Of a DNA stretch of 64,000 bases, positions 34,471 through 54,477 are shown one piece after another. A program made the position numbers and the translations under genes. The DNA is from Hominibacterium faecale (lineage in GTDB: Bacteria; Bacillota; Clostridia; Peptostreptococcales; Anaerovoracaceae). The notes beneath the pieces were generated by a model. That model was not told the DNA's origin. It was given only the letters and a program-made list of their open reading frames with translations, and searched no databases. Every line of letters starts with the position of its first letter. The stretch's first letter is position 1. The stretch is taken from contig NZ_JAJAGH010000008.1 in the NCBI RefSeq assembly GCF_020734085.1, positions 5,743 through 69,742 on the forward strand, read 5' to 3'.

Positions 34471-34518
34471 TTAAGGCTGGATATTTAGAGCTTTTCGGTG
34501 GTAATACGGCCCATAATA

Positions 34519-37583: not shown

Positions 37584-37623
37584 TAAGTCAAAAACGACTA
37601 TGTGAATAGTCGTTTTTGACTAT
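37584..37623. promoter_or_regulatory. perfect 16-bp inverted repeat AGTCAAAAACGACTAT-gtga-ATAGTCGTTTTTGACT (candidate EBP UAS)
   Basis: Lies about 170 bp upstream of the sigma-54 promoter at 37783. The same motif family recurs at 37670-37687 and at 54193-54315. Confidence 0.45.
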
Positions 37624-37782
37624 AAAAATAACGTTGTTTGGGATGAATTCCTTCCTATTTTAAGAGCGGATAGTCAATTTTAGCTAGCAATAAAAATGCC
37701 TGGCTAAAATGAAATTGAAGAAAAACCTTTTGTTTCAAGGAAATAGAAGGTTTTTTGTGCGTTTCTTGAAACTAAATGTATT

Positions 37783-37798
37783 TGGCATACAATTTGCA
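37783..37798 (+). promoter_or_regulatory. sigma-54 promoter TGGCATacaatTTGCA
   Basis: Canonical -24 GG / -12 GC spacing, about 127 nt upstream of the GAPDH start. Confidence 0.55.
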
Positions 37799-37924
37799 AT
37801 ATATTAAGGTCAGTATATTATCAACAAGGACTCGGAGGCGCCGTTAATGCAGCTTGCAGATCATGCCATCTGCGGAGCTTTAAAAAAGGTGATTCCGGAA
37901 ATGAGTGAACGAGGAGGAGAAACA

Positions 37925-38947
37925 ATGACGAATGTATTAGTGGTGGGTTATGGAACAATTGGACAGAGGCTTGCCGACGGGGTTAGTCTGCAGGACGATA
38001 TGAATCTGATTGGAGTTGTGGACGCGGCAATGAGTCTGTCGATCAGGGCCCTGAAAGAAAAAGGCATGCCATATGATCTTTATGCAGTAAACGAAACGTG
38101 CCGGGCCGAGCTTGCAGCAAACGGGATTCCAGTCCGCGGACTTTTGGAGGAAGCACTTGAGAAAACAGACATTGTATTGGATGCGACATCCGCAGGTGTT
38201 GGTGCGAAAAATAAAGAGCAATATAAAAAATATGGGGTTAAAGCGGTCTTCCAGGGCGGCGAGAAAAATGATGTGGCAGATGTGTTTTTTCACGGATATG
38301 CCAACTATGAAAAAGGCCTCCATGCGGATTTCCTAAAGCTGACATCCTGCAACACAACCGGATTGATCCGGGCAGTAGACTGCCTCGATAAAAAATGCGG
38401 GATTGAGAAGGTCGCGATTACCATTGTACGGAGAGTTGCGGACCCGGGAGATTACCACAGAGGATTGACCAATGCGCTGCAGGTTGACAAAGCGCCCAAT
38501 CATCAGGCACTGGATCTGATGACGATTTTGCCGGAAATTAAAGCGACCGGAATCCTGGTGCACGCACCGGTAACCCATGGACACTTTATTACCGTAGTGG
38601 CAACACCGAAGAGAGATATATCAGTGAAGGAGGCAATCGATACATTCAAAGAGCACAACCGTATTCGCATGGTCAGACTGGATGAAGGATTTCAGGGCAA
38701 TGCTTCAATCTTCAAATACGCAAGAGATCTTGGAAGGCCAAGAGGCGATCTGTATGAAATCTGCATCTGGGAGGACACCATCGTAAAATCTGGTAAGGAT
38801 ATTATGTTTGGAATACATATTCCACAGGAATCGGTAACCATTCCTGAGACGATTGATGCGATTCGTGCGGCAATGGCCATGGATACAGACGGAAAAACAG
38901 CGGTGGAAAAGACCAACAAGAATCTTGGCCTGGGAGGATGGAAATGA
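37925..38947 (+). CDS. type II (archaeal-type) glyceraldehyde-3-phosphate dehydrogenase family protein
   Basis: Start at MTNVLVVGYGTIGQR (GAGGAGGAG RBS). SCNTTGL catalytic-Cys motif and overall collinearity with archaeal GAPDH (for example Methanothermus) rather than bacterial GapA. Confidence 0.75.
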   Translation: MTNVLVVGYGTIGQRLADGVSLQDDMNLIGVVDAAMSLSIRALKEKGMPYDLYAVNETCRAELAANGIPVRGLLEEALEKTDIVLDATSAGVGAKNKEQYKKYGVKAVFQGGEKNDVADVFFHGYANYEKGLHADFLKLTSCNTTGLIRAVDCLDKKCGIEKVAITIVRRVADPGDYHRGLTNALQVDKAPNHQALDLMTILPEIKATGILVHAPVTHGHFITVVATPKRDISVKEAIDTFKEHNRIRMVRLDEGFQGNASIFKYARDLGRPRGDLYEICIWEDTIVKSGKDIMFGIHIPQESVTIPETIDAIRAAMAMDTDGKTAVEKTNKNLGLGGWK

Positions 38948-40188
38948 TTAAATGGAAAACAGTGGACGATTATGATTATCGGAACAAAGTGACCTTGCTG
39001 CGAGTGGACATCAACTCTCCAATCCACCCAGGTACGAAGAAAATTGTAAACGAAAACAGGATTCATAAAAGCGCGCCAACCATCCAGAAGCTGTTAGATA
39101 AAGGTACGAAGCTGGTGATCATCGCGCACCAGGGGGATACGCTGGATTACGAAAACCTGATCCCTATGGAAGAACATGCTCAAAAGTTGAATCAATATAT
39201 AAACGGGAGTATCCGCTATATTGATGATCCCTGCGGTCCGGCAGCACAGGAAGAAATCCGAAAGCTGAAGGCTGGAGAAGGACTTTTACTGGGAAACTTG
39301 CGCTATCTTACTGAAGAGACTTCAACCTTTGAGAATGTGGTAAAGCTAAAGCCAGAATTGATGGAACAGACCTACCTGGTACGATCCCTGCTTCCTTTAT
39401 GTGATTATTATGTCAACGACGCCTTTTCCGCAGCCCATAGAAATGCACCTTCCATGGCTGCATTCCAGAGGCTTCTTCCTACGGCAGCAGGCGAGCTGAT
39501 GTGCCGGGAAGTTGAAGCGCTGGATCAGATTATTGAATCTCCGGACCACCCATGTCTGTTTGTGTTAGGAGGTGCAAAGATTTCCGATGCCTTTGGCATG
39601 ATGAAGCAAGTTCTGGAAACAGGCAAAGCGGATAAAATTCTTACTTGCGGAGTTACAGGTGAAATTATGCTGATGGCGAAAGGCTATTCATTGGGAGAAA
39701 AAAAGGAATTATTTATCCGCGAGCGGGGACTGGACCGTTTCGTACAGGAGGCAAGGCAATATCTTGATAAATACCCACAAAAGATCGATTATCCAGTTGA
39801 TGTGGTGTATGAAAGAAGCGGGGAACGCTGTACGCTGGACATTGACGAATTGCCCAAGTCAGAACTGTTTATGGACATTGGAGAAAAAACGATTGAGCAC
39901 TATCGACGAGAAATCATACAAGCAAAAACCATTTTTGTAAACGGACCTGCAGGCGCTTATGAAAATCCGCTTTTTGAAAGAGGAACGAAAGAAGTCTGGG
40001 AAGCGATTGCAGCTGCAAAAGGCTATTCTGTCATCGGAGGCGGCGACACCGTCAGTGCGGCGCAGCGCTATATTAATCTGGATGATATTGGTTATGTCTG
40101 CACTGCAGGAGGTGCGATGGTGAGGTATGTATCCGGGACAAAACTGCCTTTAATCGAGGCCATGGACGGTGCACAATCAAAAGGTTAA
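38944..40188 (+). CDS. phosphoglycerate kinase family protein (archaeal-type)
   Basis: RVDINSPI, VNDAFSAAHR and GGAKISDAFGM / GGGDT PGK motifs. The ATGA start overlaps the GAPDH stop. Confidence 0.75.
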   Translation: MIKWKTVDDYDYRNKVTLLRVDINSPIHPGTKKIVNENRIHKSAPTIQKLLDKGTKLVIIAHQGDTLDYENLIPMEEHAQKLNQYINGSIRYIDDPCGPAAQEEIRKLKAGEGLLLGNLRYLTEETSTFENVVKLKPELMEQTYLVRSLLPLCDYYVNDAFSAAHRNAPSMAAFQRLLPTAAGELMCREVEALDQIIESPDHPCLFVLGGAKISDAFGMMKQVLETGKADKILTCGVTGEIMLMAKGYSLGEKKELFIRERGLDRFVQEARQYLDKYPQKIDYPVDVVYERSGERCTLDIDELPKSELFMDIGEKTIEHYRREIIQAKTIFVNGPAGAYENPLFERGTKEVWEAIAAAKGYSVIGGGDTVSAAQRYINLDDIGYVCTAGGAMVRYVSGTKLPLIEAMDGAQSKG

Positions 40189-40219
40189 AAGAACAGAGAT
40201 TCTGGGAAAGGAAAACAAA

Positions 40220-41287
40220 ATGAATACATATAAAATTGCAGTAATCGGCGGAGACGGCGTAGGACCGGAAGTTTGCAGGGAAGGAAAAAAGGTTCTGCAT
40301 AAAATTGCAGAGCTGGATAAGGGCATCGGATTTGAATTTGAGGATTTCCCCTGGGGATGTGAATATTATCTGGAGCATGGTGAAATGATGCCGCAGGATG
40401 CCCTGGAGACTCTAAAAAAATTTGATGCCGTTTACTTGGGAGCAGTTGGATTTCCGGGGGTACCGGACCATATTTCTTTGTGGGATATTCTGCTGAAAAT
40501 CAGAAAAGGGTTTGATCAATATATCAACCTGCGGCCGATCAAGCTGCTGAAAGGAGCCCCATGTCCGCTTGCAGGTGTAAAGCGCGAGCAGATTGACATG
40601 CTGGTTGTGCGGGAAAACAGCGAAGGCGAATATGCAGGAAGCGGAAGCTGGATGTACAAGGGAAAAATCAACGAAGTGGTGATACAGGACAGTGTTTTTT
40701 CCAGACTGGGATGTGAAAGGGTGATTCGCTATGCGTATGAATTAGCAAAAAAAGAGAAGAAAACATTGACAAGCATTAGCAAAGCCAATGCACTTAATTA
40801 CTCCATGGTATTTTGGGATCAGATTTTTGAAGAGGTCGGACGGGAATACCCGGATGTGGAAACCTACTCCTATCTGGTGGATGCGGCAAGCATGTTTTTT
40901 GTAAAAGAACCTGAGCGGTTTCAGATCGTAGTAACGTCCAATTTGTTCGGAGATATTCTCACCGATTTAGGGGCAGCGATTGCGGGAGGTATGGGACTTG
41001 CCGCAGGGGCAAATATCAATCCGGAAAGGCTCTATCCGTCCATGTTTGAGCCGATCCACGGATCTGCGCCCGACATTGCGGGAACCGGGCAGGCAAATCC
41101 CCTTGCAGCGGTCTGGTCAGTCAGCCAGATGATGGACTTTTTCGGTTATGAGGAATGGGGAAAACGCATATTGGATGCCATTGAACAGCTTCTTACAGAA
41201 AAAAAGAGCCTGCCACGCGACTTAGGAGGGAGTTCGACAACAGAAGCTGTCGGAAATGAAATTGTGCGGCTGCTGGAACGGGCGTAA
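40220..41287 (+). CDS. tartrate dehydrogenase / D-malate / 3-isopropylmalate dehydrogenase-family decarboxylating dehydrogenase
   Basis: Start at MNTYKIAVIGGDGVGPEV. NLFGDILTDLGA signature. 355 aa. Confidence 0.7.
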   Translation: MNTYKIAVIGGDGVGPEVCREGKKVLHKIAELDKGIGFEFEDFPWGCEYYLEHGEMMPQDALETLKKFDAVYLGAVGFPGVPDHISLWDILLKIRKGFDQYINLRPIKLLKGAPCPLAGVKREQIDMLVVRENSEGEYAGSGSWMYKGKINEVVIQDSVFSRLGCERVIRYAYELAKKEKKTLTSISKANALNYSMVFWDQIFEEVGREYPDVETYSYLVDAASMFFVKEPERFQIVVTSNLFGDILTDLGAAIAGGMGLAAGANINPERLYPSMFEPIHGSAPDIAGTGQANPLAAVWSVSQMMDFFGYEEWGKRILDAIEQLLTEKKSLPRDLGGSSTTEAVGNEIVRLLERA

Positions 41288-41342
41288 AGGGTAAAGGGAT
41301 AAAATGCGGCAACGCCGCATTCAATGGGGAAAATCGTATACC

Positions 41343-42425
41343 CTAAGAATAAAAGACCCGCTGAAAAAGCTGATGTCTTCCGCTGATATCCAATTTCTGA
41401 TAGATATTGGATACATGCTTTTTTACGGTAGGCATACTGATTTGACATTGCTCCATGATTTCCGTATTGCTGAGGCCGTTTACCAGATACTGGAGCACTT
41501 CGTATTCCCGGAGGGTCAGGTGATTGGTCTCTTTGATGGAAAGAAGGATATTGTCGATGATGGTGGAATAGTCGTAAACACAGCAGGAGAAGGTCTGGTC
41601 AGAATCGTTGTAGCTGACGTTGACGTAATAGGACTTATCTTCCAGGTTGATTTTACTGTGGGTTTTCAAAGTTTCAGACACTTTGGAAGCGCCTCGGGCC
41701 GAGATTTCCTGCTTTAGCGTCTCGCACATGGCAGTAAACATATTCCGGATCGTATCCAGAGAGAGCTGAGAATGCAGGCCGGTGGTAATATTGGAATGCA
41801 TGATGTTCAGATCCCGGTCGTAAACCATGTACACCAGAATATTATCGTGAGAAAACATAGTATATTTGCTTTTATCCAGATTATGCTTTGCCTCACAAAC
41901 ATCCTGAACGATTCTGGACAAGTGCAGTTTGAACATTTTGATCAATTCCAGATCCTGCGCGGTAAAATCCTCAGATTGCTTTGACCGATGCAGCCCAATG
42001 CCGCAGACATATCCACTGGGGGAATTTTCCACAAAGAGATTGCCCTCGATGGAATAATACATATTGCAGGGCTTGAGGCATTCTTTAAAATAGCGGGTTT
42101 TCTCCCGCTCAGAGCGGGTAAAAATCTCCGAGCTTTTGAAGATGATGGGCTGTTTCAAAGAAACGATAGGCAGAGCATCGTCCATGTCACAGACCTTGAA
42201 ATAATAGTTCAGATCCTTTCCCCATCCGGCAAAGATAAAATTTTCAAATCGAATGCTGTTCTGCCCTTTTTTAAAAATATAAATATCGCCTTTTTCAAAG
42301 AAGCAAAGTTTCTTTAGTTCTTCAAGAAAGTGCTGCAAAGCGTCGATTTTATTGTATGCAACATATAAATCCGAAATCATTTTGTTAAACGTATAAAATT
42401 CATTTTCATTAAAGGTAAATGCCAT
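41343..42425 (-). CDS. LuxR-family transcriptional regulator with large N-terminal sensor domain
   Basis: C-terminal GerE/LuxR HTH (LTLREYEVLQYLVNGLSNTEI...). Start at MAFTF (AGGAAA RBS). Divergent from the GRE operon. Confidence 0.7.
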   Translation of the reverse strand: MAFTFNENEFYTFNKMISDLYVAYNKIDALQHFLEELKKLCFFEKGDIYIFKKGQNSIRFENFIFAGWGKDLNYYFKVCDMDDALPIVSLKQPIIFKSSEIFTRSEREKTRYFKECLKPCNMYYSIEGNLFVENSPSGYVCGIGLHRSKQSEDFTAQDLELIKMFKLHLSRIVQDVCEAKHNLDKSKYTMFSHDNILVYMVYDRDLNIMHSNITTGLHSQLSLDTIRNMFTAMCETLKQEISARGASKVSETLKTHSKINLEDKSYYVNVSYNDSDQTFSCCVYDYSTIIDNILLSIKETNHLTLREYEVLQYLVNGLSNTEIMEQCQISMPTVKKHVSNIYQKLDISGRHQLFQRVFYS

Positions 42426-42643
42426 AATATTTCCTCTGCATAACATTTAGCAAAAACAGACTGTATATTTATTATATTTGATTGTATTTGAAAAGTAAAT
42501 GTTCAATTCGGCAAGGTATACCAACGGCTACCATGGAAAAAATCCTACTGCAGAACAATTGTCAGAAAACTTGATCGGGTATATAGTTAATCTATACTTG
42601 GAAAAGACAAGACAACGGATAAAATGACGAAGGAAGGGAGTGA

Positions 42644-42916
42644 AAGAAAACGAATATAAAATTTAGAGCAGCCAGCCCGGCGATTACAGACGGCAGGCTG
42701 GCTGACAGATATGGGAGCTGGTCCAGAGAAGCTGAAATCGCCTATGGTATCCCGCTTACATCTTTTCCCCTCCGGTGGGAAGGGGTACCTGCGGGCACAA
42801 AGAGCTATGCGGTCATCTTTATGGATAACGACAACGCAAAAGGGGAAGGATTTCCTTTTATACATTGGCTGGCCTGCAACATTCCGGGGGAAATGACCGA
42901 GCTTTACTACGGATAG
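42644..42916 (+). pseudogene. truncated PEBP/YbhB-family gene remnant (no start codon, premature stop)
   Basis: Frame encodes ...PLRWEGVPAGTKSYAVIFMDNDNAKGEGFPFIHWLACNIPG, which matches the N-terminal half of YbhB. It ends 9 codons later, 21 nt before the GRE start. No ATG/GTG/TTG upstream in frame. Confidence 0.45.
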
Positions 42917-42937
42917 AAAGAGAAGGGAGCAAATCAC

Positions 42938-45343
42938 ATGAACACAGAAAACAGAACTTTTTCTTTAGAAGGGGAAAACCATTTCCCCAGAATTGAAAAG
43001 CTGATCGAAGACTACAGAAAAGCCCGGCCCAGCGTAGATATCGAGCGGGCCAGAATCTATACCGAGTCTTTCAAAGAAACAGAAGGGGAAGACATCATTA
43101 CCAGACGGGCCCAGGCCTTCAAGGATTACTGCGAGAAAAGAGAGATACGGATTGCAGACCACCAGCTGATTGCAGGCGATGTCGCCAGAATCCCCAGGGC
43201 TGGAGTTGTAGACCCGGTGTTTCACTGCGGCTGGCTCAGCGAAGAACTGGACACCATTTCCACAAGAAAACAGGATCCCTATTTCATTTCGGAAGAGGAT
43301 AAAAAAGAACTGCGGGAAACCATTTTTCCATATTGGAAAGGCAAAATTGTCAGCGAACTCTGGCTCCGCCAAATCCCGCCTTATGTAAGAGAAATGGCCG
43401 TCAAGACCGGCATCATCGACGTGGAGATCAAAACTCAGAGCGCGGCCGGAGAGACAGCTCCTTACTGGGAAAAGGCCATGAATACCGGCCTGGGACAGAT
43501 GGAAAAGGAGCTTGCGGAGGCCATCGACGCTCTGGATCCGATTGATCCGGAAAGCTATGAAAAAATTACGTTTTATAAAGCCTGTAAGATGACCTTAGAA
43601 GGCTTAAAGCATTATATCCTGCGGTTTGCCGGTCTGGCTGAAGAGCAGGCCGATCAGGCGGCAGGCAAAAGAAAGGAGGAGCTGGAACGCATTGCTGCCA
43701 ACTGCCGCTATCTTTCAGATAACAAACCAAAAACCTTCTGGCAGGGGCTGCAGCTTACTTACTTCATCCTGGCAGGCTGCATGATGGAAGGCAACGGCCC
43801 TTCCTATTCGCCGGGAAGAATGGACCAGTATCTGTATCCTCTGTACGCAAAGGATATGGAAGAAGGAAGACTGACGGATGCACAGACGCTGGAGCTGATC
43901 GAGGCATTCTATGTAAAGACAGCGGAATCCACTTGGTTTCTCAGTGCAAATGCGGCCATGTACTTTGCGGGATATCAGCCGTTTCACAGCATTATCGTAG
44001 GCGGGATTGACAAGAGGGGAAAGGATGCGACCAACCAGCTGTCCTACCTGTTTATCACAGCTAAAATGGATGTACAGCTTCACAGCCCCTCTCTGTGCGC
44101 CCGGGTACACCAGCAGTCGCCAGAGGAGCTGATTGCCCACATCGCCAAACTGGCCAGACTGGGAACCGGATTTCCGGCTATCTATAACGATGAAGTCGCC
44201 ATTAAGATGATGCTGCTGTCCGGAGGAACGATGGAAGAGGCCAGAGACTATCAGATGGTTGGGTGTGTTGAGCCGTTTATGGGCGGCAAGATGGCCAAAT
44301 GGTCAGACGGCGGCCACTACAACTATGCGGCGGCCATGGAATTCGTTCTCCATAACGGAAGAAGCATTATCAATGAGAACAAGCTGCTGGGTTTGGAAAC
44401 AGGTGATCCACAGGACATGACTTACGATGAAATCAAAGATGCGGTGAAACAGCAGCTCAAATATATGATCGAGTCCATCAGCATCTGCGCCAATGTCAAT
44501 GAGAAGGTCTGCGCAGAGCTGACACCGTACCCGTTTATTTCCACATTCCTGGAAGGGACGTTACATACAGGAAAAGATCTGACCCGGGGTGGTGTGAAAT
44601 ATACCATCGGACCGGCGCTGATCGGCACAGGCATTGCAGATCTGGTTAACTCGCTTTCCGCAATTAAGAAGCACGTCTTTGATGATAAGACGATTACTAT
44701 GGGTGAGTTGATCCAGGCACTGAAAGCAAATTTTGATGGTTATGAAAAAATCCGTCTCATGCTGCAGAATACAACGCCGATGTACGGAAATGACATTGAA
44801 GAGGTGGATGCGCTGGCAGGAGAAATGACTGATTACGCCTACAGTGTGATTTCCCAGTGCAAATCCTGGAGAGGTCCGCACTTTATTTCCGGTCTGTACC
44901 CGGTATCCTCACATGTTCCCCACGGACTGGTGGTAGGCGCTCTGCCTTATGGGCGGCTTTCAGGAAAGGCCCTTGCGGACGGATGCTTCCCAAATGGCGG
45001 AACCGACCACGAAGGACCAACTTCCGTATTAAAATCGGTTTCCAGAATCAATCACGAAGTCCATACCTCGGGCACCCTGCTGAATATGAAACTGGACCCT
45101 CAAAGTGTTTCGGGAGATTTGGGAATCAAGCGGATTTCCGACATCATCCGTACATTTGTAGACTTGAATATCTATCACATTCAGTTCAATGTAGTGAGCC
45201 GTGAGCTGCTGCGAGCAGCGCAGGACAAACCGGAAGAACACAAATCACTGATCGTGCGAGTAGCCGGATATAGCGCCTACTTCACGGAACTTTGTGAAGA
45301 AATGCAGGACGACATCATCAACAGAACCATACATCAGGCTTAA
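42938..45343 (+). CDS. glycyl radical enzyme, glycerol/diol-dehydratase-like clade (substrate unknown)
   Basis: 801 aa. VGCVEP Cys-loop. C-terminal glycine radical motif RVAGYSAYF. Block-by-block similarity to C. butyricum glycerol dehydratase as recalled, but the NGHS active-site stretch reads NGPS here. Confidence 0.85.
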   Translation: MNTENRTFSLEGENHFPRIEKLIEDYRKARPSVDIERARIYTESFKETEGEDIITRRAQAFKDYCEKREIRIADHQLIAGDVARIPRAGVVDPVFHCGWLSEELDTISTRKQDPYFISEEDKKELRETIFPYWKGKIVSELWLRQIPPYVREMAVKTGIIDVEIKTQSAAGETAPYWEKAMNTGLGQMEKELAEAIDALDPIDPESYEKITFYKACKMTLEGLKHYILRFAGLAEEQADQAAGKRKEELERIAANCRYLSDNKPKTFWQGLQLTYFILAGCMMEGNGPSYSPGRMDQYLYPLYAKDMEEGRLTDAQTLELIEAFYVKTAESTWFLSANAAMYFAGYQPFHSIIVGGIDKRGKDATNQLSYLFITAKMDVQLHSPSLCARVHQQSPEELIAHIAKLARLGTGFPAIYNDEVAIKMMLLSGGTMEEARDYQMVGCVEPFMGGKMAKWSDGGHYNYAAAMEFVLHNGRSIINENKLLGLETGDPQDMTYDEIKDAVKQQLKYMIESISICANVNEKVCAELTPYPFISTFLEGTLHTGKDLTRGGVKYTIGPALIGTGIADLVNSLSAIKKHVFDDKTITMGELIQALKANFDGYEKIRLMLQNTTPMYGNDIEEVDALAGEMTDYAYSVISQCKSWRGPHFISGLYPVSSHVPHGLVVGALPYGRLSGKALADGCFPNGGTDHEGPTSVLKSVSRINHEVHTSGTLLNMKLDPQSVSGDLGIKRISDIIRTFVDLNIYHIQFNVVSRELLRAAQDKPEEHKSLIVRVAGYSAYFTELCEEMQDDIINRTIHQA

Positions 45344-45360
45344 ATACAGGAGATTTGTCA

Positions 45361-46269
45361 ATGAAGGAAAAACGGACAGGGATTATCTTTAATACGCAGA
45401 AATTTTCCATACATGACGGCGGCGGGATACGGACCCTGATTTTTATGAAGGGCTGCCCGCTGCGGTGTATCTGGTGCAGCAATCCGGAATCCCAGAGGCC
45501 GGAGCCGGAGATCACAGATGTAAAAACCAATTGTATTGGCTGCGGAGACTGCGTTTGTGTATGTCCGAAGGAGGCAGTCAATCCGTTGACCTTTCAGATT
45601 GACCGGGGCAAGTGCGATGCCTGCGGCCTGTGCGCGAAAAGCTGCTACGCACAGGCTAAAAAGCTGACCGGTCAGGTAGTGACTGTGGAGGAGCTGGTGA
45701 ATATCGCTGTAAAGGATCAGGTCATATACCGGAATTCAGGCGGCGGTGTGACGGTCGGAGGCGGCGAGCCTCTGACCCAGCCGGACTTCGTTTACGAGTT
45801 TCTCCGTGCCTGCAGCATGCGCAACATCCATACGGCCATTGAAACCTGCGGCTTTGGAGACTGGTCTGAGGTGGAAAAGGTTTTTCACCAGGCCGATCAG
45901 ATTTTATTTGATTTGAAATGCATGGATGAGGAAAAGCATCGGGCGTATACTGGCGTAAGTAATAAAAGCATCCTGCTCAACGCAGAAAAGGCGGCGGCCT
46001 CAGGCAAAGAGATCCGCTTTCGGGTCCCGGTGATCCCAGGGGTAAACGACGGGGAGAATATACGGCAAACCGGAGCGTTTGTCCGTGGGCTGCAGAGGCA
46101 AAACAGTCAGGTGAAGGTTGAACTGCTGCCTTATCATAATTTTGGAAAAGACAAGTATAAATGGCTCGGCAGAAAGTATGATCTGGAGCCTTTAGAGCGT
46201 ATGGAAAAAGAGGAGTTGGGCCGATATTACAAGGTGTTGGAAGAATTGGACTGTAATGTCGTATATTAA
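45361..46269 (+). CDS. glycyl radical enzyme activating protein (radical SAM, with two extra ferredoxin-like clusters)
   Basis: CPLRCIWCSNPES radical-SAM motif. CIGCGDCVCVCP and CDACGLCAKSC motifs. AGGAG RBS. ATG at 45361. Confidence 0.85.
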   Translation: MKEKRTGIIFNTQKFSIHDGGGIRTLIFMKGCPLRCIWCSNPESQRPEPEITDVKTNCIGCGDCVCVCPKEAVNPLTFQIDRGKCDACGLCAKSCYAQAKKLTGQVVTVEELVNIAVKDQVIYRNSGGGVTVGGGEPLTQPDFVYEFLRACSMRNIHTAIETCGFGDWSEVEKVFHQADQILFDLKCMDEEKHRAYTGVSNKSILLNAEKAAASGKEIRFRVPVIPGVNDGENIRQTGAFVRGLQRQNSQVKVELLPYHNFGKDKYKWLGRKYDLEPLERMEKEELGRYYKVLEELDCNVVY

Positions 46270-46272
46270 AAA

Positions 46273-46312: not shown

Positions 46313-46401
46313 TTGGGCTTCCGCATAGATTGGAAAAATGTCGCTTCGCGATCTTTCCTCATTGATGCGACAGCCCAACTCGATTAATTTATATGAAATG
46401 G

Positions 46402-47478
46402 CTATTTCACATAGGTCTCCATTGGGCGGATCATATAGTTGAGAGGGCCCATCTTATCGGTCGTAACATAGCCTGGCTCGGAGTTCATGACATCCGGTAT
46501 CCGGTTAACAACGGAAGCACAGGTAATGGCTACGGTGTCCGGTTTCTTTAATACGAAGTCCTGGGTCGGTTCTCCGTAAAGGGTCCATTTGATCAAATCC
46601 TCTTCGCCGGGAGCATATACTTTTCCCACACACTCGGTTTCCAGCGTGATGCCTTCTTCTGTAGTGGTAATCACCGTAGCGGAGAGCCCGACTGCATGGC
46701 CGGCGGGGATTTCTGTCTGCAGAACATCGGACCATAACGGCTGATCGCAGGTCTGAGGGATGAATTTCTGTTCCTGTGTCTTTACAGTCAATCCCAGCAG
46801 GGAACAGATCCAGCCGTTGGCATTCCACATGTAGCATGGAAGGAAATCTTCTGTTTCCAGTACTTCCTGTCTCTTTTCCTCAGAAATATTATTAACAGCG
46901 GCAATGGTCTTTTCAAATTCATCCAGCGACAGGTTGACGCCATGAACCTTGGCCAGGGCAACTCCGTAATCTTCCGAATTATATACAACAGAGCCTTTAA
47001 TTTTGGTGACTTTATTGGATGCCCCGGCGATGGTGGAAATAATGTATCCCCAGCCCATGTCCTGTGCTCCGGTCCCGCAGATGGTACAGTTGTTCTTTTT
47101 TGCAAGCTCATCGATTTCCTTTGTCATCTTATAGCGGGAGTTCCATGGATAAAAGGCCTCTTCACATGTGGAGATGGCATTAATGCCCAATTCCGCGCAG
47201 AGAAGGAAGATGTCCTGACAGTCGGGGAGAAGGGCCATGGTTTCAACAATGCATACATCCGGCTTAGTCTGGGTGAGGATCTGGCGGGCATCCTTGGCGT
47301 AGCTGACTTTAACGCCCTTGTTTTCTGTGCCCATGATCTCGCCAATATCTTTGCCAAAGGCGCGGTCGGATTTACCAAAAGCGCAGACCACCTCGCCACC
47401 ATGGTCATAGACATACTTCATAGTTGGACCAGCCATTTTTCCACTTCCATACTGAGCAACTTTTACTTTACGATTCAT
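46402..47478 (-). CDS. DapB-fold NAD(P)-dependent oxidoreductase, probable amine dehydrogenase (2,4-diaminopentanoate dehydrogenase-like family)
   Basis: N-terminal Rossmann motif KVAQYGSGKMAG. Architecture recalls native amine dehydrogenases. AGGAGG RBS. Last gene of the dehydratase operon. Confidence 0.5.
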   Translation of the reverse strand: MNRKVKVAQYGSGKMAGPTMKYVYDHGGEVVCAFGKSDRAFGKDIGEIMGTENKGVKVSYAKDARQILTQTKPDVCIVETMALLPDCQDIFLLCAELGINAISTCEEAFYPWNSRYKMTKEIDELAKKNNCTICGTGAQDMGWGYIISTIAGASNKVTKIKGSVVYNSEDYGVALAKVHGVNLSLDEFEKTIAAVNNISEEKRQEVLETEDFLPCYMWNANGWICSLLGLTVKTQEQKFIPQTCDQPLWSDVLQTEIPAGHAVGLSATVITTTEEGITLETECVGKVYAPGEEDLIKWTLYGEPTQDFVLKKPDTVAITCASVVNRIPDVMNSEPGYVTTDKMGPLNYMIRPMETYVK

Positions 47479-47552
47479 TTTTTACCTCCTAAAATTTTCA
47501 CAATGATTGATATGTTGATACGGCAAAATCAGCCGATCTGGATAAACACAAG

Positions 47553-47897
47553 TTATAACGGATATAAGGGCAGCCCTTTCACGAGGCGGGCTGCATTTTG
47601 ACCAAAGATTCGCCCTTCCTTTTTCGTCAGAGCAGGCGGCCTCTTTTCCAGGATACAGGTCCCGGGCCCAGCCTTCTGATGCATGAGAAACACCTTCTCT
47701 TTTGATATTCCGATTGCAATGCCCACCTTGGAAGCCTGAGCTGAGCCAAAGGTGTGCTCGTTCAGAGCAGAGGCGGGCGCAAGGGTGCGGGTGCTGAACA
47801 AGCCTTCCTCCTCGATTCCGTACTCGATCTGCGTCACATAGCAGGATAGGGAGTCCTCGGTATAAAGCAGGTGGATTGCCGGGTATCGGTTATTCAT
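47553..47897 (-). CDS. diol/glycerol dehydratase reactivase small (beta) subunit
   Basis: Start at MNNRYPAIHLLY. EEEG and NAARLVKGLP blocks match DdrB/DhaG. Overlaps the alpha subunit stop by 8 nt. Confidence 0.7.
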   Translation of the reverse strand: MNNRYPAIHLLYTEDSLSCYVTQIEYGIEEEGLFSTRTLAPASALNEHTFGSAQASKVGIAIGISKEKVFLMHQKAGPGTCILEKRPPALTKKEGRIFGQNAARLVKGLPLYPL

Positions 47898-49782
47898 GGC
47901 CCCCTCCTTTTTGCGCTTTTGCTGCGCCATCTGGTTGGGGTGAAGACTTGCGGTCAAAGGCTTCTTCTTTCTGAAGGAATGCATAAAGCAGGCCGCTAGC
48001 AACCGCATTCCGCGGCCCCATGCACCCGCGAATATTGCCTTTCCCGCTGGTGATGCCATAGTAGGCCAAAACATCCGTCAGCATATTTGGGAGTTCAAAG
48101 TCCAGTGAAGAGCCACCGACCAGCACCACATGCTCGAATTCATGAAGGGTGCCTGTAGCAGAAACCTTCAACAATGCCCGAAGCACATTGTTGACAAAGA
48201 CCTTTCGTTTGATCTCTCTGCGGACGGAACGAACCTTTTCCAAAGAATGCCTGGTATTGATCGGCAGATATCCGTCCGGTTGAATGGACAAAAGTTTGGC
48301 GAAAAAGTCACTGTGGAGCGGCTCTTTGAAAAACTCCACACTTCCGTCTTCGTGGCGCAGGTGAAACAGGGACTCGGCTCTTGCCAGAGGATATTTTTTG
48401 ATGGCTTCCGCTTCTTCTCTGGAAGAAAGGCCCAGCTCTGCCTGGATCAGCTCGGTCACCATGTTGCCCGCGCCAGCCAGGTGGATGGTCTTTTTCTGGC
48501 CATCACTGTGAAGATAACAGGAATCCGTAGATCCGGCGCCAATATCAACAACCAGGATGGGCGTTCCGCTTCCCGGCGTCGTGAGGGTTCCAAGGACTGC
48601 CATATCTCCCTCGACACCGCCGATCTCCGTGGGGCAGCCGACTGTTTCCTCCAGTAGAGCCGCCAGGTGCTGCATGTGCAGCTTTTGGGTCTTTACCATG
48701 GCCGCGATGCCGACGGATTTTTCCATATAAAACTCATTGGCCAAGGAGCCGATCACATTTTGCGGCACCAAAGTGTCTACGGCCATCAGATCCTGAATAA
48801 AGATGGAATCTTCCGGCGTATCGGTGACTTGAGCCATCTTTTTGCGAACCGACTCCAGCATACCGCCGACATTCGTACCGCTGCTGCCGTGGACATCACG
48901 AATCGAACCGGCACGTTTCACCTGATCCATAATTTTTTGGGCACCGTCGTCCACGTTGACCCGGTACTGCTGCCTCTGTCCGTCGATGATGATTTCGCCC
49001 GCCGGGATGATCCGTTCATGGATGCTGCCGGAAGGCGTTTTGATGACAACGGCAGAGCGGTTGCCGATCAGCGCTTTGGCAATATGGATTACATGCTTTG
49101 TCTCCGCAGAAGAGAGAGAAAAGGCGGTCGCAATGCCATAGGGGTTGGTGAGAAAGTCGATCGACGCACCCGGCCTTGCCACCTCTACGGCACACAGATA
49201 ATCCACCGGAACCTTATCGATGAGGGAGACCTCATCCACGATGGGAAGGGTTTCCGAAAGCCGATTGCAGATCAGCACCCCGTCATCATTTTGGACGATC
49301 AGTCCTTTGATGGAATAACCATCTTCAATGGCCAGATTAACCTCCCTGGCTGCGGTAATAAAGTCGTGCTCCTCTGAAATAATAACGATATGCGGCTTTT
49401 GTTTATCTGCTGCGGGAAGATCCTCCAAAAATACGGTGTAGCCGATGCCAAGACCAAGGCCACCGGGAGTGTCCGGGTTGTGGCCAATCATGGCAGATTC
49501 GGTAATGACCGTCTGAGTGATCGTTTCCATGGCAAAATCACCGATCACAGGAGTTGCCTCGTTAATACGGATCAGATCCAGAGAAGACAGCGGGATATCC
49601 ATATCCGCACAGGCTTCTTTTAGAGAATTGATCATTCCGTAAAGGTTGTCTTTTGTACCTTTGATACCGGTTGTTTTTGTTATTCCGCTGGTGCAGCGAA
49701 GCAGCCGCCCATCCTGGATCTTGCCCAGAGCAGTTTCGGTGGTAGCATTTCCGATATCGATACCAGCTACATAAGTGATCAT
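47890..49782 (-). CDS. diol/glycerol dehydratase reactivase large (alpha) subunit
   Basis: MITYVAGIDIGNATTE N-terminus typical of DdrA/DhaF. 630 aa. Confidence 0.8.
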   Translation of the reverse strand: MITYVAGIDIGNATTETALGKIQDGRLLRCTSGITKTTGIKGTKDNLYGMINSLKEACADMDIPLSSLDLIRINEATPVIGDFAMETITQTVITESAMIGHNPDTPGGLGLGIGYTVFLEDLPAADKQKPHIVIISEEHDFITAAREVNLAIEDGYSIKGLIVQNDDGVLICNRLSETLPIVDEVSLIDKVPVDYLCAVEVARPGASIDFLTNPYGIATAFSLSSAETKHVIHIAKALIGNRSAVVIKTPSGSIHERIIPAGEIIIDGQRQQYRVNVDDGAQKIMDQVKRAGSIRDVHGSSGTNVGGMLESVRKKMAQVTDTPEDSIFIQDLMAVDTLVPQNVIGSLANEFYMEKSVGIAAMVKTQKLHMQHLAALLEETVGCPTEIGGVEGDMAVLGTLTTPGSGTPILVVDIGAGSTDSCYLHSDGQKKTIHLAGAGNMVTELIQAELGLSSREEAEAIKKYPLARAESLFHLRHEDGSVEFFKEPLHSDFFAKLLSIQPDGYLPINTRHSLEKVRSVRREIKRKVFVNNVLRALLKVSATGTLHEFEHVVLVGGSSLDFELPNMLTDVLAYYGITSGKGNIRGCMGPRNAVASGLLYAFLQKEEAFDRKSSPQPDGAAKAQKGGGHE

Positions 49783-49794
49783 AGGCTGCTCCTT

Positions 49795-50217
49795 TTACCG
49801 GTTGTGCTTGAGGCGGTTGCTGTCTTGCAGGATTTCGCCTGCCTCCCGGACGAACTGAGCGGTCTCAGCGGCTCCGTATTTGTTTTCCAAAGCATCGGCA
49901 ACCGCTAAAATGTCTTCCATTTCACTACGGAAAGGGCGAATAGTGTTATAGACTTCCAAAATATAGTCATCGGGAACATTGGTCAGCTCCGCCGCGCGCC
50001 GCAGATTGGCCGCAATCTGAATATCGCCTGCCGACTGGGCGATTTCGGCCTGCATCAGCAAGGTGTCCTTGTGGATCTTTCCGTCCTCCATTTTGACCGT
50101 CCCTGCCAGAACGTTTTCCATGGTCAGTTGGCCTATGGGTCTTCCGGACATGGCTTTCAGTTTGTCAGGGTGCTTTTCCAGGAGTGGATAATCGGTTTTG
50201 TAATTTAAGGTATTCAT
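49795..50217 (-). CDS. B12-dependent diol/glycerol dehydratase small (gamma) subunit
   Basis: DYPLLEKHPD and RRAAELTNVPDDYILEVYNTIRPFRS match PddC/DhaB3. Confidence 0.8.
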   Translation of the reverse strand: MNTLNYKTDYPLLEKHPDKLKAMSGRPIGQLTMENVLAGTVKMEDGKIHKDTLLMQAEIAQSAGDIQIAANLRRAAELTNVPDDYILEVYNTIRPFRSEMEDILAVADALENKYGAAETAQFVREAGEILQDSNRLKHNR

Positions 50218-50241
50218 GGGTTTTGCCGTTCCTTTCTGTAA

Positions 50242-52467
50242 TTATATAAAAGAGACTTCAAGCTCTACCGGTTTGATGTTTTTGATCTGAGCTGTTTCGT
50301 GGTTGTGAAGAAGGGTTGTTTTCAACATATAAAATCTCGTGCTGCTGTCGATATCGCCGGGAAGCGGTTCAGGGCTTTCCCCTTTTGCGTATTTGGCCGC
50401 ATTTTTTCCGATAGCCCGGTAGGTTTTTTTGTCATAAAGCGGCGACTGAGGGAAAAGCTCCAGATTGTCCAAAGGTACCAGATCTTTTTGATGGATCACC
50501 GTAGTCCCTCTTGACTGGATACCGATGCTGATGCCTGAGCCGCTCAGCCTGGAACCTGCGCTGCTGATTACAGCCAGATCAGAGGAGCTGTAGCATTTGA
50601 TAAAGCGCGGTTTCATGCCTTCCTCTTCGATGCCGGCAGCAAGCTCGCGGAGCACGATTTCATGGGGGAGGTCTACGATGGTCTTTCGCTGCTGCTGCCC
50701 AAAGCTTGGAGAAACTGCAATAACAACTTCATCTGGATTTGTACCAGGAGCGGCAGGGCCGCATTCGGTGATGCCATTGATGTAGGATTCATCCCTGGAG
50801 TCGATAAAGTCATCTGTGGAAACAGCGCCCATGTGCTGCTGCATCTGATCCCACCGCGCATCCGAGATCTGATAGCCGGTCGTCGGTCCGGCATAGTCGT
50901 TTTCGTTATTGATCGCGCTTATCACGTGGAAGTTTTCGTCAAAGATTGCAGAGGTGTGCAGATAGTCTCCTGCCACGCGCTGCTTGAGCATGGTCAGGAT
51001 GTTTTCTGCAAGCTCCTCGTATCCGGCCTGGTACAAAACCTTCACAATATCAAAACCATTAAAATCGCTTTCCATAATGTGGGTAGCCGCTTTTATGTCT
51101 TCTGCAACGTTTCTCTTTGGCATATCGGAAGATTTGTAGGCGTAAACAGCAGCCTCTACTTCTTCATCGGTGATCTCAGGAAAATCCATCGCGTAGAACA
51201 GTGCCTGCATAGCCTGGGCTGCTTTGCGGCGATGAGCAATTACCTCCTCATTGCTGACTGGATGCAGTGCTCCATCTACCTTCATATCGCGCTGAACCAT
51301 ATAATAGTTGGCGTAGTTATCGCAGTCCATGGTGCTGGCGGAGAAGGTGTTGTCGCAGTTGGGAATAGAGGCATACCCGGAGGTGACCAGATCGGTGCCG
51401 GGCAGCATCTGCATCAGTAGCTTGGACATGCTGCGAGCCAGAGAGTGGGAAAAATAGGTGTCGTTACCAGAGGCTACTTCCAGTCCCAGCATAGAGGTCA
51501 GCAGATTTTCTGCGGCAACAGCCCGAAGCCCTGAGGGCATGGACGAGGATAGGGGCAGTCCGTCGATAGAACCGTTCTGCGTGCCCTGGGAGCCGCCAGC
51601 TTTTACCATCCAGACACAGCGCGCTTCCAGATACAGCATGGATTTTCCTTCCGCATAGCCCATCATGACCTCAGAGCCGGTACCAGAGGAAAAACGCATT
51701 TTCATACCCCGGGCGGCGTAGGCGGATGCCAGGAAAGATTTTGACCAGGGAGTATCATCTCCGTCAGACATGACCGCCTCGGTACCATATACGGAAACGG
51801 TTTCTGCGTAAGAGGTGAAGCCCTTCATGCCGATCTTCAATTCGGTGGCTTCCTCCAGGGAACACTGGGTGATAACGCCTGGGCGGCCGACCTGGCTTCC
51901 GATCATCAGCGCAATCGCGTTGAGCGGTGCGCAGCGAGTCACACTGCAGGTAGTCTCCAGTTCGGCAAAACCGCGGAGGGCAGCTTCGGCGGCATCGGCA
52001 GCCATCAGTACCGGATTGTCCAGCAGGTTGGTCACATGGGCCTGATTGGCCGGACTTTTTCTGGCTCGCATTTTCATTTGTGCCATCATGATTTCCACAA
52101 CGTTCATTTTGCTGACCACATCGACCAGTTTGGCAGGAGTCAGGCCGGAGGCAATCTTCAAAAGGTCACGTCTTGAAACGTTGATATCTACCAGCATCTT
52201 TGCGATTTCCGCGGAATCAAGGGCCATAGAGGTTTCCGCCTCAGAGACATTGATTCCATATTTAACAATAAATTTGTCGATAAAGTCAAATTCATCCCTG
52301 GTTTTTCCATCCATCTCCACAATCTGGCCATCTATGATTTTAATGCTGGGGCGAGGGTCGTTGGGGCTGTCCAGTGCGACTAAACCGACTGCAGGATCCT
52401 CCCACGCGATAACATCTTGGGTTACAGGGGCCTGCTCATATTTTTGTCTTCGTTTTGTTGATTTCAT
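50242..52467 (-). CDS. B12-dependent diol/glycerol dehydratase, fused large+medium (alpha-beta) subunit
   Basis: 741 aa. SPNDPRPSIKI, QCSLEEATELKIGM, TSYAETVSVYGTE and GDDTPWSK are collinear with Klebsiella PddA. The C-terminal 190 aa (EVVIAVSPSFG...) is beta-subunit-like. Confidence 0.85.
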   Translation of the reverse strand: MKSTKRRQKYEQAPVTQDVIAWEDPAVGLVALDSPNDPRPSIKIIDGQIVEMDGKTRDEFDFIDKFIVKYGINVSEAETSMALDSAEIAKMLVDINVSRRDLLKIASGLTPAKLVDVVSKMNVVEIMMAQMKMRARKSPANQAHVTNLLDNPVLMAADAAEAALRGFAELETTCSVTRCAPLNAIALMIGSQVGRPGVITQCSLEEATELKIGMKGFTSYAETVSVYGTEAVMSDGDDTPWSKSFLASAYAARGMKMRFSSGTGSEVMMGYAEGKSMLYLEARCVWMVKAGGSQGTQNGSIDGLPLSSSMPSGLRAVAAENLLTSMLGLEVASGNDTYFSHSLARSMSKLLMQMLPGTDLVTSGYASIPNCDNTFSASTMDCDNYANYYMVQRDMKVDGALHPVSNEEVIAHRRKAAQAMQALFYAMDFPEITDEEVEAAVYAYKSSDMPKRNVAEDIKAATHIMESDFNGFDIVKVLYQAGYEELAENILTMLKQRVAGDYLHTSAIFDENFHVISAINNENDYAGPTTGYQISDARWDQMQQHMGAVSTDDFIDSRDESYINGITECGPAAPGTNPDEVVIAVSPSFGQQQRKTIVDLPHEIVLRELAAGIEEEGMKPRFIKCYSSSDLAVISSAGSRLSGSGISIGIQSRGTTVIHQKDLVPLDNLELFPQSPLYDKKTYRAIGKNAAKYAKGESPEPLPGDIDSSTRFYMLKTTLLHNHETAQIKNIKPVELEVSFI

Positions 52468-52620
52468 TTCCTACTCCTTTTCTACTTTGGTTTCTTTAAG
52501 AATCCCTGTGAGGACCATAAAAGTTTCCTCGTAACCTTATTTTAACATAAAGATTGCTCAATATTCTGAAAATTCTCCTGAGAAACGATGGGGACGAAAA
52601 TCTTTATGCTATTTAATAAA

Positions 52621-52635
52621 GCAAATTTTATGCCA
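52621..52635 (-). promoter_or_regulatory. sigma-54 promoter (minus strand: TGGCATaaaatTTGC)
   Basis: Plus strand reads GCAAattttaTGCCA. Lies about 155 nt upstream of the dehydratase start. Confidence 0.55.
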
Positions 52636-52758
52636 AAGATAATCGGCCCTAAAGAATAATGATAAAACTATACTGGCGGCTACTGTTGGAATGGGGCGTT
52701 TTCTGCTATAATAAGAATGTAGAAAAAGCGGAGGCAAGTGGAAGGAGGATAGAGCATT

Positions 52759-54195
52759 ATGGAAAAAAAACATTCAGAGAAAAGCAGTTCGCCATGTGAA
52801 ACATGCCGCCATTATGAAGAAAAACGAATGGATATCTTGTTCGAAGTTATGGATAATGAGAATGATGTGACCTTAGCGGACGGGAAGGGCGTTGTGCTGA
52901 GAGTCAGCGATTCCTACGAAGACCATTTCGGTCTGAAGAAAGAGGAAATTATAGGTAAAACCGTGTGGGAGCTGGAGGATATGGGGGTCTTTAAGCCGTC
53001 GGTAACTGCTGCTGTTTTGGAAAAGAAGAAAAACACCACCATTATGCAGAAGAACAAACAGGGGCGGGATGTACTGACTACTGGTGTTCCTGTTTTCGGA
53101 AAAGATGGAGAAATCGCATATGTAGTCAGCTTTAATTCGATTCATATTGCAGGCGTTACGAGCCTGCAGAGCCAATATGAACAGTTAAACACAATGATGC
53201 AAGCGTATAATCAGGAAATCAATAAGCTTCGATTAAGAGATTTGAGAGAAAAGAAATTTATCAAAAAGAGTAAGAGTATGGAAAATATCAGCGAATTGAT
53301 TTCGCAGATTGCGGATACAAACGCGTCCGTATTGATTACAGGAGAAACGGGTGTGGGAAAAAGTATGGTTGCCAAGCTCATTCATGAAAACAGCAACCGT
53401 TCAGAAGGCCCTTTTGTGGAGATCAACTGCGGGACAATTCCTGAAAATTTAATCGAATCCGAACTGTTCGGCTATGAAAAAGGATCCTTTACAGGAGCCA
53501 ACAGCAAAGGGAAAATAGGAAAAATAGAGCTGGCAAAAGGAGGAACTTTGTTCCTGGACGAAATCGGCGAAATCTCGCTCAATCTGCAAATTAAATTTCT
53601 GCAGGTCATACAGGAAAAATTGATAACAAGAGTAGGTGGACTTAGTAAAATCGAGGTGGATTTCCGTCTGATCACCGCGACGAACCGCGACCTGGAAGAC
53701 GATATTCATCGGGGGCTCTTTCGGGAGGATTTGTTTTATCGTCTGAATGTAATACCAATTCATATTCCGCCTCTGCGCGAACGCAGGGAAGATGTCCTGC
53801 CGTTGATTTTGAATGCTTTGGAACGGTTTAATTCTCAATATGGAAGACATATAAAATTGTCGGCAGATGCCCTTCAGATATTGGAACGGCAGACGTGGCC
53901 CGGGAACATCCGCCAGATAGAAAATCTGGTTGAACGGATGGTCGTTACTTCCAGGGGCGAGCTAATAAGGATAGAAGACCTGCCTGCTGACTTGGAATGG
54001 GAGACCATGCAGCAGACGCCGGAAACAACGGGACAGCTGAAAGAACGGCTAGAAAATTATGAACGCAACATCTTTATCGATGCCTTTAAGGAACATCAGT
54101 CAAGCGTAGCAGTGGGAAAAGCCTTGGGAATCAGTCAGACAACGGCTGCGAGAAAGCTGCGTAAGTATATTCCGGGATATGCAAATTTGAACTAG
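52759..54195 (+). CDS. sigma-54-dependent transcriptional activator (PAS, AAA+, HTH)
   Basis: GETGVGKS Walker A, GSFTGA, ESELFGYEKGSFTGA, C-terminal HTH. AGGAGG RBS. Confidence 0.85.
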   Translation: MEKKHSEKSSSPCETCRHYEEKRMDILFEVMDNENDVTLADGKGVVLRVSDSYEDHFGLKKEEIIGKTVWELEDMGVFKPSVTAAVLEKKKNTTIMQKNKQGRDVLTTGVPVFGKDGEIAYVVSFNSIHIAGVTSLQSQYEQLNTMMQAYNQEINKLRLRDLREKKFIKKSKSMENISELISQIADTNASVLITGETGVGKSMVAKLIHENSNRSEGPFVEINCGTIPENLIESELFGYEKGSFTGANSKGKIGKIELAKGGTLFLDEIGEISLNLQIKFLQVIQEKLITRVGGLSKIEVDFRLITATNRDLEDDIHRGLFREDLFYRLNVIPIHIPPLRERREDVLPLILNALERFNSQYGRHIKLSADALQILERQTWPGNIRQIENLVERMVVTSRGELIRIEDLPADLEWETMQQTPETTGQLKERLENYERNIFIDAFKEHQSSVAVGKALGISQTTAARKLRKYIPGYANLN

Positions 54196-54228
54196 TCAAA
54201 AATAGCTATTATAGTCAAAAATGGCTAT
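54193..54228. repeat. tandem direct repeats TAGTCAAAAATAGCTAT / TAGTCAAAAATGGCTAT (candidate UAS), with a third degenerate copy at 54294-54315
   Basis: Same 16-17-bp motif family as the palindrome at 37584-37623. Confidence 0.4.
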
Positions 54229-54477
54229 GGTATGAAAAAGTGCTGTTATATTCAGATTTAGGCACGAGGAAGAGGAAAAAGGAGGTTTAAAAGTATAGCC
54301 AAAAATGCCTAGTCCTGCAACAGGCCCATGGTTGAAACCCTGGGATGAATCGAAATCTTTTGATCAAATTCCAGCAGGATAAAGGACTTGATTTTTTTAG
54401 TGCAAATCCGTAAATTCTCCTAAAATCCGTAACGCCCGAAAATTTTTTTGTCCTGCAGTTCAGTGATTTCTTAGTTT

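Follow-up and report, generated by a model that had tools for sequence, protein, structure and literature searches.

A shared 17-bp motif probably places a permease gene and a type II GAPDH operon under one sigma-54 activator in Hominibacterium faecale

We analyzed a 64,000-nucleotide stretch of the Hominibacterium faecale genome (contig NZ_JAJAGH010000008.1, positions 5,743 to 69,742; hereafter, the window) and identified six 17-bp pseudo-palindromes (TAGTCAAAwwTrrCTA), which form two triplets at two gene sets 17 kb apart in this human-gut member of the Anaerovoracaceae. One triplet precedes the sigma-54 promoter of an operon beginning with a type II GAPDH homologue, and the other precedes the sigma-54 promoter of a permease gene. 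As judged from sequence comparisons, the sites are probably the upstream activating sequences, at both targets, of a PAS-AAA+-helix-turn-helix (HTH) activator encoded at 52759-54195 (hereafter, 52759). The elements concerned are listed below, with site scores from a matrix built from the window's own six sites; related loci and proteins in other genomes are given as L and P numbers.

37585-37601, plus strand: site G1, AAGTCAAAAACGACTAT, left arm of a perfect inverted pair (22.2 bits)
37606-37622, minus strand: site G2, TAGTCAAAAACGACTAT (24.2 bits; G1 and G2 centers 21 bp apart)
37671-37687, plus strand: site G3, TAGTCAATTTTAGCTAG (18.0 bits; center 104 bp 5' of the -24 element)
37782-37798, plus strand: sigma-54 promoter of the GAPDH operon, TTGGCATacaatTTGCA (TTGGCAT-N5-TTGCA), conserved in L053
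52759-54195, plus strand: sigma-54 activator 2, with PAS, AAA+ with GSFTGA, and C-terminal HTH (GISQTTAARKLRKY)
54193-54209, plus strand: site P1, TAGTCAAAAATAGCTAT (24.5 bits; starts at the activator stop codon)
54212-54228, plus strand: site P2, TAGTCAAAAATGGCTAT (25.6 bits; P1 and P2 centers 19 bp apart)
54296-54312, plus strand: site P3, TAGCCAAAAATGCCTAG, degenerate (21.8 bits; center 174 bp 5' of the -24 element)
54477-54493, plus strand: sigma-54 promoter of the permease gene, TTGGCGCgaaccTTGCA (TTGGCGC-N5-TTGCA), a conserved block in the spacer alignment

Every motif copy listed in a first-pass annotation of this stretch was present, within 0-2 nt of the position it gave. Its perfect inverted pair at 37586-37621 was likewise confirmed, with 37586-37601 and 37606-37621 being 100% complementary over 16 nt across a 4-nt spacer, whereas P1 and P2 are direct copies. 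Each promoter has three sites, with centers 104-277 bp 5' of the -24 elements at 37782 and 54477, and each site is a 17-bp pseudo-palindrome with TAG-N10-CTA symmetry, that is, a dyad sized for HTH dimers. A consensus derived from 30 sites gave TAGTCAAAwwTrrCTA, with T1, A2, T15 and A16 nearly invariant. When up to three mismatches were allowed, the motif pattern of the first-pass annotation matched the window five times versus 0.43 expected, always in these two regions, and none of 100 shuffled sequences reached five matches; the 17-bp motif had no further copy elsewhere in the window. Exactly these six sites were also top-ranked in the window by a matrix trained on relatives (12-23 bits; next best, 11.9), a partly circular result that is supporting evidence only, as the training sites in related loci were picked by eye. 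Single matches of ~18 bits arise in some shuffles, and the case rests on clustering and position. A further sequence that had been described as shared, AAAAATGCCTRG, does occur in both regions, but it is weaker as independent evidence: at the permease it is the 3' part of P3, and at the GAPDH operon it lies 3' of the third site, within an imperfect inverted copy, and is not conserved in L053.

Scanning the window for the consensus TTGGCRY-N5-TTGC revealed five matches versus 0.31 expected, of which four were in intergenic DNA and in the correct orientation (34640, 37782, 54477 and, on the minus strand, 52621). The promoters previously placed at 37783 and 54478 are among these, as real consensus matches at 37782 and 54477. 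Four consensus promoters in the right places imply that the genome carries a gene for sigma-54 (rpoN/sigL). The remaining full match (17318-17333) falls inside a gene for a MATE-type transporter (17014-18345) and is probably due to chance.

We then compared loci whose activators are 53-86% identical to 52759 (for example, 85% in L049, 82% in L051, 80% in L001 and 65% in L006). In a genome scan with the activator, L006 was the one true relative found; the other 42 matches, all distant paralogues, served as negative controls only. Across five genomes, the spacer between the activator stop codon and the next gene was 55% identical overall, with the three sites and the promoter forming conserved blocks. 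In loci with activators 60-86% identical to 52759, the same layout recurred: two abutting sites (17-21 bp between centers) start at the stop codon, the third site follows after another 60-85 bp, and the -24/-12 promoter lies 100-205 bp past the last site. Site orientation varied among orthologues, and sites started at or just past the stop codon of this activator family in nine genomes. TAGTCAAAAATGACTAT lies just 3' of the activator stop codon in L054, sites are found at the same place in L137, and TAATCAAAAATAACTAGcTAGTCAAAAATAGCTAG follows the stop codon in L138 (labelled Anaerovorax odorimutans). L138 also has a second triplet where a 3-hydroxyacyl-CoA-dehydrogenase operon and a TRAP-transporter operon diverge, between their sigma-54 promoters; this triplet is weaker (one of the three sites reaches 12 bits with the window matrix).

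For a specificity test, we used the matrix from the window's six sites only and defined a cluster as at least two matches of at least 12 bits within 150 bp. Clusters were present in six of ten family loci (L001, L006, L049, L051, L137 and L138), each with a cluster at the activator 3' flank, and in none of 122 control loci comprising distant-activator loci and GAPDH-II loci (1.34 Mb). Among the other family loci, L053 and L054 had one strong and one weaker site each, L136 had one match and L055 had none. In L001, the 3' end of the dehydratase-side activator paralogue retains weaker sites that are not followed by a sigma-54 promoter. Two activator paralogues in tandem (P0003 and P0007), each ~81% identical to 52759, are encoded in L001-L005 (GCA_022794115.1 and related contigs). 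The dehydratase operon adjoins one of them; the neighbors of the other are two 3-hydroxyacyl-CoA-dehydrogenase genes, a DUF3156 gene and a different permease, which is only 24% identical to that of the window. In L137 (11490-11545), the third site, TAGTCAATTTTGACTAA, occupies the loop and center of a long perfect palindrome (GTAAGCCCTAGGGAC...GTCCCTAGGGCTTAC) and is thus embedded in a terminator-like hairpin.

The activator itself carries the domains PF00158, PF25601 and PF18024, its translation displays the GSFTGA loop, and its structure matches belong to the NtrC family (best: NtrC1, FleQ and NtrC; E ~1e-72). Site-bearing activators have a common helix (LGISQTTAARKLRKYIP), which varies slightly (GIGQ and AARRL, for example); no sites were found at the locus of the Sinanaerobacter homologue (L055), the helix of which is IGQSSVVRKLQKY. 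Site presence covaries with the recognition helix GISQTTAARKLRKY.

The second sigma-54 activator of the window, encoded at 33016, is 37% identical to 52759, has the helix TDQATISRKLKKY and is accompanied by a triple repeat of its own, AATATGCArrAwTrCAA (34428-34444, plus strand; 34448-34464, minus strand; 34515-34531, plus strand), with a promoter at 34640-34655. Its layout parallels that of the 52759 sites: the first two copies are inverted relative to each other and lie at the stop codon, the third follows 87 bp later, and the promoter comes last. Because 33016 combines a different helix with its own triple repeat in the same layout, the two systems are parallel but distinct, and the GAPDH-side sites are clearly of the activator-2 type. 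The first-pass annotation had singled out TGCAAAATTGCA at 34519 as a different upstream activating sequence, and it indeed forms part of the third AATATGCArrAwTrCAA copy. Its further proposal, that 52759 rather than 33016 would control the GAPDH operon, is supported by the site clusters, the helix, relatives in which a family activator adjoins GAPDH genes and a pseudogene in L053.

These relatives also bear on the origin of the GAPDH-side triplet. An activator 60-63% identical to 52759 lies directly 5' of an operon with type II GAPDH and phosphoglycerate kinase (PGK) in L054, L136 and L137, and a family activator is likewise found directly 5' of a GAPDH-II/PGK-containing operon in L055. The GAPDH operon of L053, which comes from the same genome as L051 and L052, is preceded by a pseudogene, two sites, a hairpin and a promoter. 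The pseudogene comprises the last ~110 codons of a frameshifted 52759-family activator, and the two sites score 10.9 and 13.8 bits with the window matrix versus 22-24 bits for G1 and G2. In the window, an activator paralogue in front of the GAPDH operon has disappeared completely. The GAPDH-side triplet thus likely descends from a lost family paralogue that once lay directly upstream. Two further elements of this region are:

37721-37755, plus strand: terminator-like hairpin with a U run, between the sites and the promoter (-19.4 kcal/mol, z -4.9)
37820-37903, plus strand: ETF-alpha C-terminus relic, INKDSEAPLMQLADHAICGALKKVIPEM, within the GAPDH operon's 5' leader

The hairpin is kept in L053 (667-704; -22.3 kcal/mol) through compensatory changes, and it probably shields the promoter from read-through from the upstream gene. 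A similar terminator-like hairpin occurs between the sites and the promoter in L138 (~11528-11566). The ETF-alpha relic appears to mark the junction between the promoter cassette and an older, longer operon; two close metagenomic GAPDH matches (L056 and L061) have an intact ETF-alpha gene 5' of the GAPDH gene. The relic is in frame with the GAPDH gene, and therefore databases hold a 366-aa 'GAPDH' (P0121) beside the 340-aa form. In the likely history, an activator-enhancer-terminator-promoter cassette was inserted into the older, longer operon and the local activator decayed, after which control likely passed to the surviving paralogue, 52759, 15 kb away.

A metagenome scan with the GAPDH protein yielded 80 GAPDH-II loci. 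An activator homologue within 6 kb was found at none of these 80 loci, which provided no new GAPDH-side enhancers, and the activator-GAPDH link is therefore specific to this lineage. In L139 and L140, the GAPDH-PGK module (83% identical) is wired to an unrelated activator of 702-704 aa, and no TAGTC sites are present.

The mechanism that we propose follows established knowledge of NtrC-family activators. Dimers of 52759 would bind each pseudo-palindrome through the GISQTTAARKLRKY helix, and ligand sensing by the PAS domain would allow the two abutting sites and the third to nucleate a hexamer. DNA looping would then bring this hexamer to sigma-54 polymerase 100-280 bp away, where ATP hydrolysis would open the promoter. 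Because the same sites and activator would serve both promoters, one signal could switch on the permease together with the GAPDH-II/PGK/D-malate-dehydrogenase-like operon.

Several observations weigh against sole control by 52759. Close relatives carry two or three family paralogues (P0003, P0007 and the L053 pseudogene), which shows that as a rule each operon once had an activator of its own. An activator with the same helix and less than ~50% overall identity could also sit elsewhere in the genome. G1 and G2 differ from P1 and P2 at positions 11-13 (CGAC versus TAGC or TGGC), which could reflect a slightly different original specificity. Lastly, P1-P3 are the only TAGTC sites within 1.5 kb of a third sigma-54 promoter (52621-52636, minus strand). 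In an alternative reading, the sites are genuine activator sites and the GAPDH-side triplet is served by another family paralogue encoded outside the window. The near-identical helices of P0003 and P0007 in L001-L005, the ancestral paralogue upstream of the GAPDH operon (L053) and the deviation of G1/G2 from P1/P2 all speak for it. We nevertheless regard it as unlikely: the paralogue is a frameshifted pseudogene in L053 and has left no trace in the window, the family helix is elsewhere paired with GACTA-type and GCTA-type half-sites alike, and among the 120 best homologues (~45% identity or more), Hominibacterium and Ihubacter are represented only by the cluster of 52759 itself. As evidence against a close paralogue in the species, this survey is weak yet relevant. 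With the paralogue upstream of the GAPDH operon apparently lost, 52759 is the sole family member detected in the species.

Loss of the adjacent activator gene, together with a region visibly rearranged around the ETF-alpha relic, would fit GAPDH-side sites that are a decaying, non-functional remnant of the lost paralogue, the operon being now silent or otherwise driven. Such a remnant would be expected to decay, and the preservation of G1 and G2 (22-24 bits in a perfect 16-bp inverted pair, better kept than the 10.9 and 13.8 bits of L053) therefore counts against it, as does a promoter that is still a full consensus match; we consider it very unlikely. It is equally hard to credit that some other transcription factor (a repressor or a global regulator, for example) recognizes the motif, whose position near sigma-54 promoters would then be due to chance. 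A 17-bp pseudo-palindrome would suit many HTH dimers, but these sites follow the stop codon of one activator family in nine genomes, are gone where the activator helix differs and, at more than 100 bp upstream, are too distant to block the promoter. Least probable of all is that the motif binds no protein and instead represents a dispersed repeat, an RNA hairpin or a terminator, even though G1 and G2 fold with -22.5 kcal/mol and were flagged as terminator-like on the minus strand. There is no minus-strand gene end at this place and no plus-strand U run, P1 and P2 are direct copies so that the sequence and not the hairpin is conserved, and Rfam returned no match. The lack of a U run, the direct P1/P2 arrangement and the varying orientation among orthologues likewise led us to reject G1/G2 as an intrinsic terminator. 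A dispersed repeat unrelated to promoters, the outcome that the first-pass annotation had named as fatal to its proposal, was not seen in the 64 kb or in the 1.34 Mb of control loci, where we found no other copy and no cluster, respectively, and a REP-like repeat was rejected on the same basis. Control of both targets by 52759 thus remains the reading that we prefer.

The third promoter, which is of the sigma-54 type, lies beside the activator and had been missed in the earlier annotation:

52621-52636, minus strand: third sigma-54 promoter, TTGGCATaaaatTTGC, of the B12 dehydratase operon, divergent from the activator gene

L049, L051 and L001 all retain this promoter. As the promoter nearest the activator has no sites of its own, the site-to-target rule is therefore incomplete, and the place of this promoter in the regulon is uncertain. 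It is just conceivable that P1-P3 also activate it from ~1.6 kb, across the activator gene. A single box, CTATACTGGCGGCTACTG (CTATACyG..G..TACTG), at 52668-52685 is conserved in L049 and L051 and absent from L001; with its different geometry and single occurrence, it was rejected as an activator site.

Like enhancers of the NtrC/NifA type, the window's sites are several dyads (16-18 bp) located 100-300 bp 5' of a -24/-12 promoter, with adjacent sites about two helical turns apart and a cognate activator containing AAA+ and C-terminal HTH domains. They differ in having TAGTC/GACTA half-sites rather than TGCACC or TGT-N10-ACA and in a site pair that begins at the activator's own stop codon, and 52759 is not a response regulator but a one-component protein with PAS-based sensing. 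A reconstruction of 39 activator groups in Clostridiales (Nie et al. 2019, PMC6615313) reported site-to-promoter distances of 100-250 bp for clostridial activators, which the distances of 100-280 bp seen here match; none of these 39 groups has such targets (GAPDH, dehydratase or this permease). Its supplement gives predicted Clostridiales sites for DioR (ATTATCAAAAATGATAA) and MopR (TAGTCAAAAAACGAACA or TGATCAAAAAGTGAACA), in two or three copies 190-300 bp 5' of sigma-54 promoters. These are AT-rich, 17-19 bp long and have a TCAAAAA core in common with the 52759 motif, but their outer half-sites are TTATC...GATAA and TGATC...GAACA versus TAGTC...rrCTA here, and they serve ygeW/ssnA-type and mop/moeA genes, which differ from the GAPDH, dehydratase and permease genes considered here. 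Membership in the DioR or MopR group was rejected on site consensus and target genes, not on protein sequences. PrdR, the proline reductase activator of Clostridioides difficile, resembles 52759 in being a one-component PAS-AAA+-HTH protein and activates amino-acid catabolism. Among named NCBIfam models, PrdR scored highest for 52759, with 392 bits versus a cutoff of 795, and PrdR sites belong to the TGT-N10-12-ACA class (PMC6615313); orthology to PrdR was accordingly rejected. On these comparisons, 52759 would be a member of the NtrC-type activator class from a family absent from the 39 Clostridiales groups.

The genes around the sites are:

33016, plus strand: sigma-54 activator 1, with genes for an amidohydrolase (34718) and an MFS transporter (36355) downstream
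37925-38947, plus strand: type II (archaeal-type) GAPDH homologue (NF003251, 396 bits versus a cutoff of 185)
38938-40188, plus strand: PGK homologue (PF00162 on orthologues)
40220-41287, plus strand: tartrate/D-malate dehydrogenase (decarboxylating) family (TIGR02089, 487.6 bits versus a cutoff of 470.4)
41343, minus strand: LuxR-type regulator
42938 and 45355, plus strand: glycyl-radical enzyme and its activase
46402-52467, minus strand: B12-dependent diol-dehydratase-like operon, kept beside the activator in relatives
54552-55925, plus strand: APC-family amino acid permease (84% identical orthologues at the same position in L049 and L051)

The dehydratase operon encodes a fused large and medium subunit, a small subunit, reactivase alpha and beta, and an Ord-like dehydrogenase. 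After the GAPDH-II and PGK genes, the same operon slot is occupied either by a D-malate/tartrate dehydrogenase (the window and L139, whose enzymes are 85% identical) or by a LarA-type racemase and a malic enzyme (L054, L055, L136 and L140). The genes ahead of GAPDH-II/PGK vary: in some cases there is an aminotransferase gene, in others a B12-binding protein is encoded together with a hydantoinase-like one, and in others again the product is a diol-dehydratase-like enzyme. The slot swap and the variable upper genes suggest a modular pathway through D-malate, since the D-malate dehydrogenase and the racemase with malic enzyme exchange in one slot. LarA homologues encoded beside malic enzyme genes are malate racemases (PMC7583248), and the carnitine pathway of Acinetobacter baumannii runs from malic semialdehyde through D-malate to pyruvate with a DmlA-type decarboxylating enzyme (PMC11353897).

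In the pathway that we envisage, an upper step would supply a C4 hydroxy-aldehyde such as malic semialdehyde, here through the B12 diol-dehydratase-like enzyme and the Ord-like dehydrogenase and elsewhere through an omega-aminotransferase or a B12-binding mutase-like protein with its hydantoinase-like partner. The GAPDH-II/PGK paralogues would oxidize this aldehyde to D-malate by way of an acyl phosphate, with ATP formed by substrate-level phosphorylation, and the last step would convert D-malate to pyruvate. Oxidation of a C4 hydroxy-aldehyde by GAPDH-II/PGK is proposed because of the slot swap, the malate-racemase function of LarA and the Acinetobacter D-malate route taken together. The A. 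baumannii pathway offers a possible model for the operon's last gene, as it too has a DmlA-family D-malate dehydrogenase after an aldehyde-oxidizing step; its aldehyde dehydrogenase, however, is non-phosphorylating, whereas a GAPDH-II/PGK pair would conserve energy as ATP. The 'GAPDH operon' is probably not glycolytic. That the regulon defines an undescribed anaerobic catabolic route in gut Anaerovoracaceae is a tentative suggestion, for which we would not claim more than a modest chance.

An amino-acid-type permease tied to a GAPDH-II/PGK/D-malate-dehydrogenase-like operon probably forms an inducible catabolic module rather than part of housekeeping glycolysis, and either promoter could be used as a reporter in screens for the inducer and substrate. 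The analysis provides a candidate DNA motif, recognition helix and target set for an activator family absent from the 39 Clostridiales groups, and the likely sequence of cassette insertion, local activator loss and hand-over to a paralogue 15 kb away would document a case of regulatory rewiring. The host, Hominibacterium faecale/Ihubacter massiliensis, represents a poorly studied human-gut lineage, and we found no relevant literature on Ihubacter, Hominibacterium or Emergencia in connection with sigma-54 or diol dehydratase.

Minor observations concern the neighboring genes. An Rfam search of 33000-56500 gave no match. Neither TAGTC sites nor a sigma-54 promoter was found in 41343-46269, the region between two of the sigma-54 operons, where the LuxR-type regulator, glycyl-radical enzyme and activase occur in the same order in L049 and L051. 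The glycyl-radical enzyme (801 aa) belongs to the generic PFL2/glycerol-dehydratase family and scores below the CutC and HypD cutoffs. A PBP-family gene, absent from the window, lies 3' of the reactivase beta gene in L004, L005, L049 and L051. In the window, the reactivase beta gene itself (PduH-like, ~114 aa; 47553-47897, minus strand) is hidden within a longer open reading frame of 173 aa.

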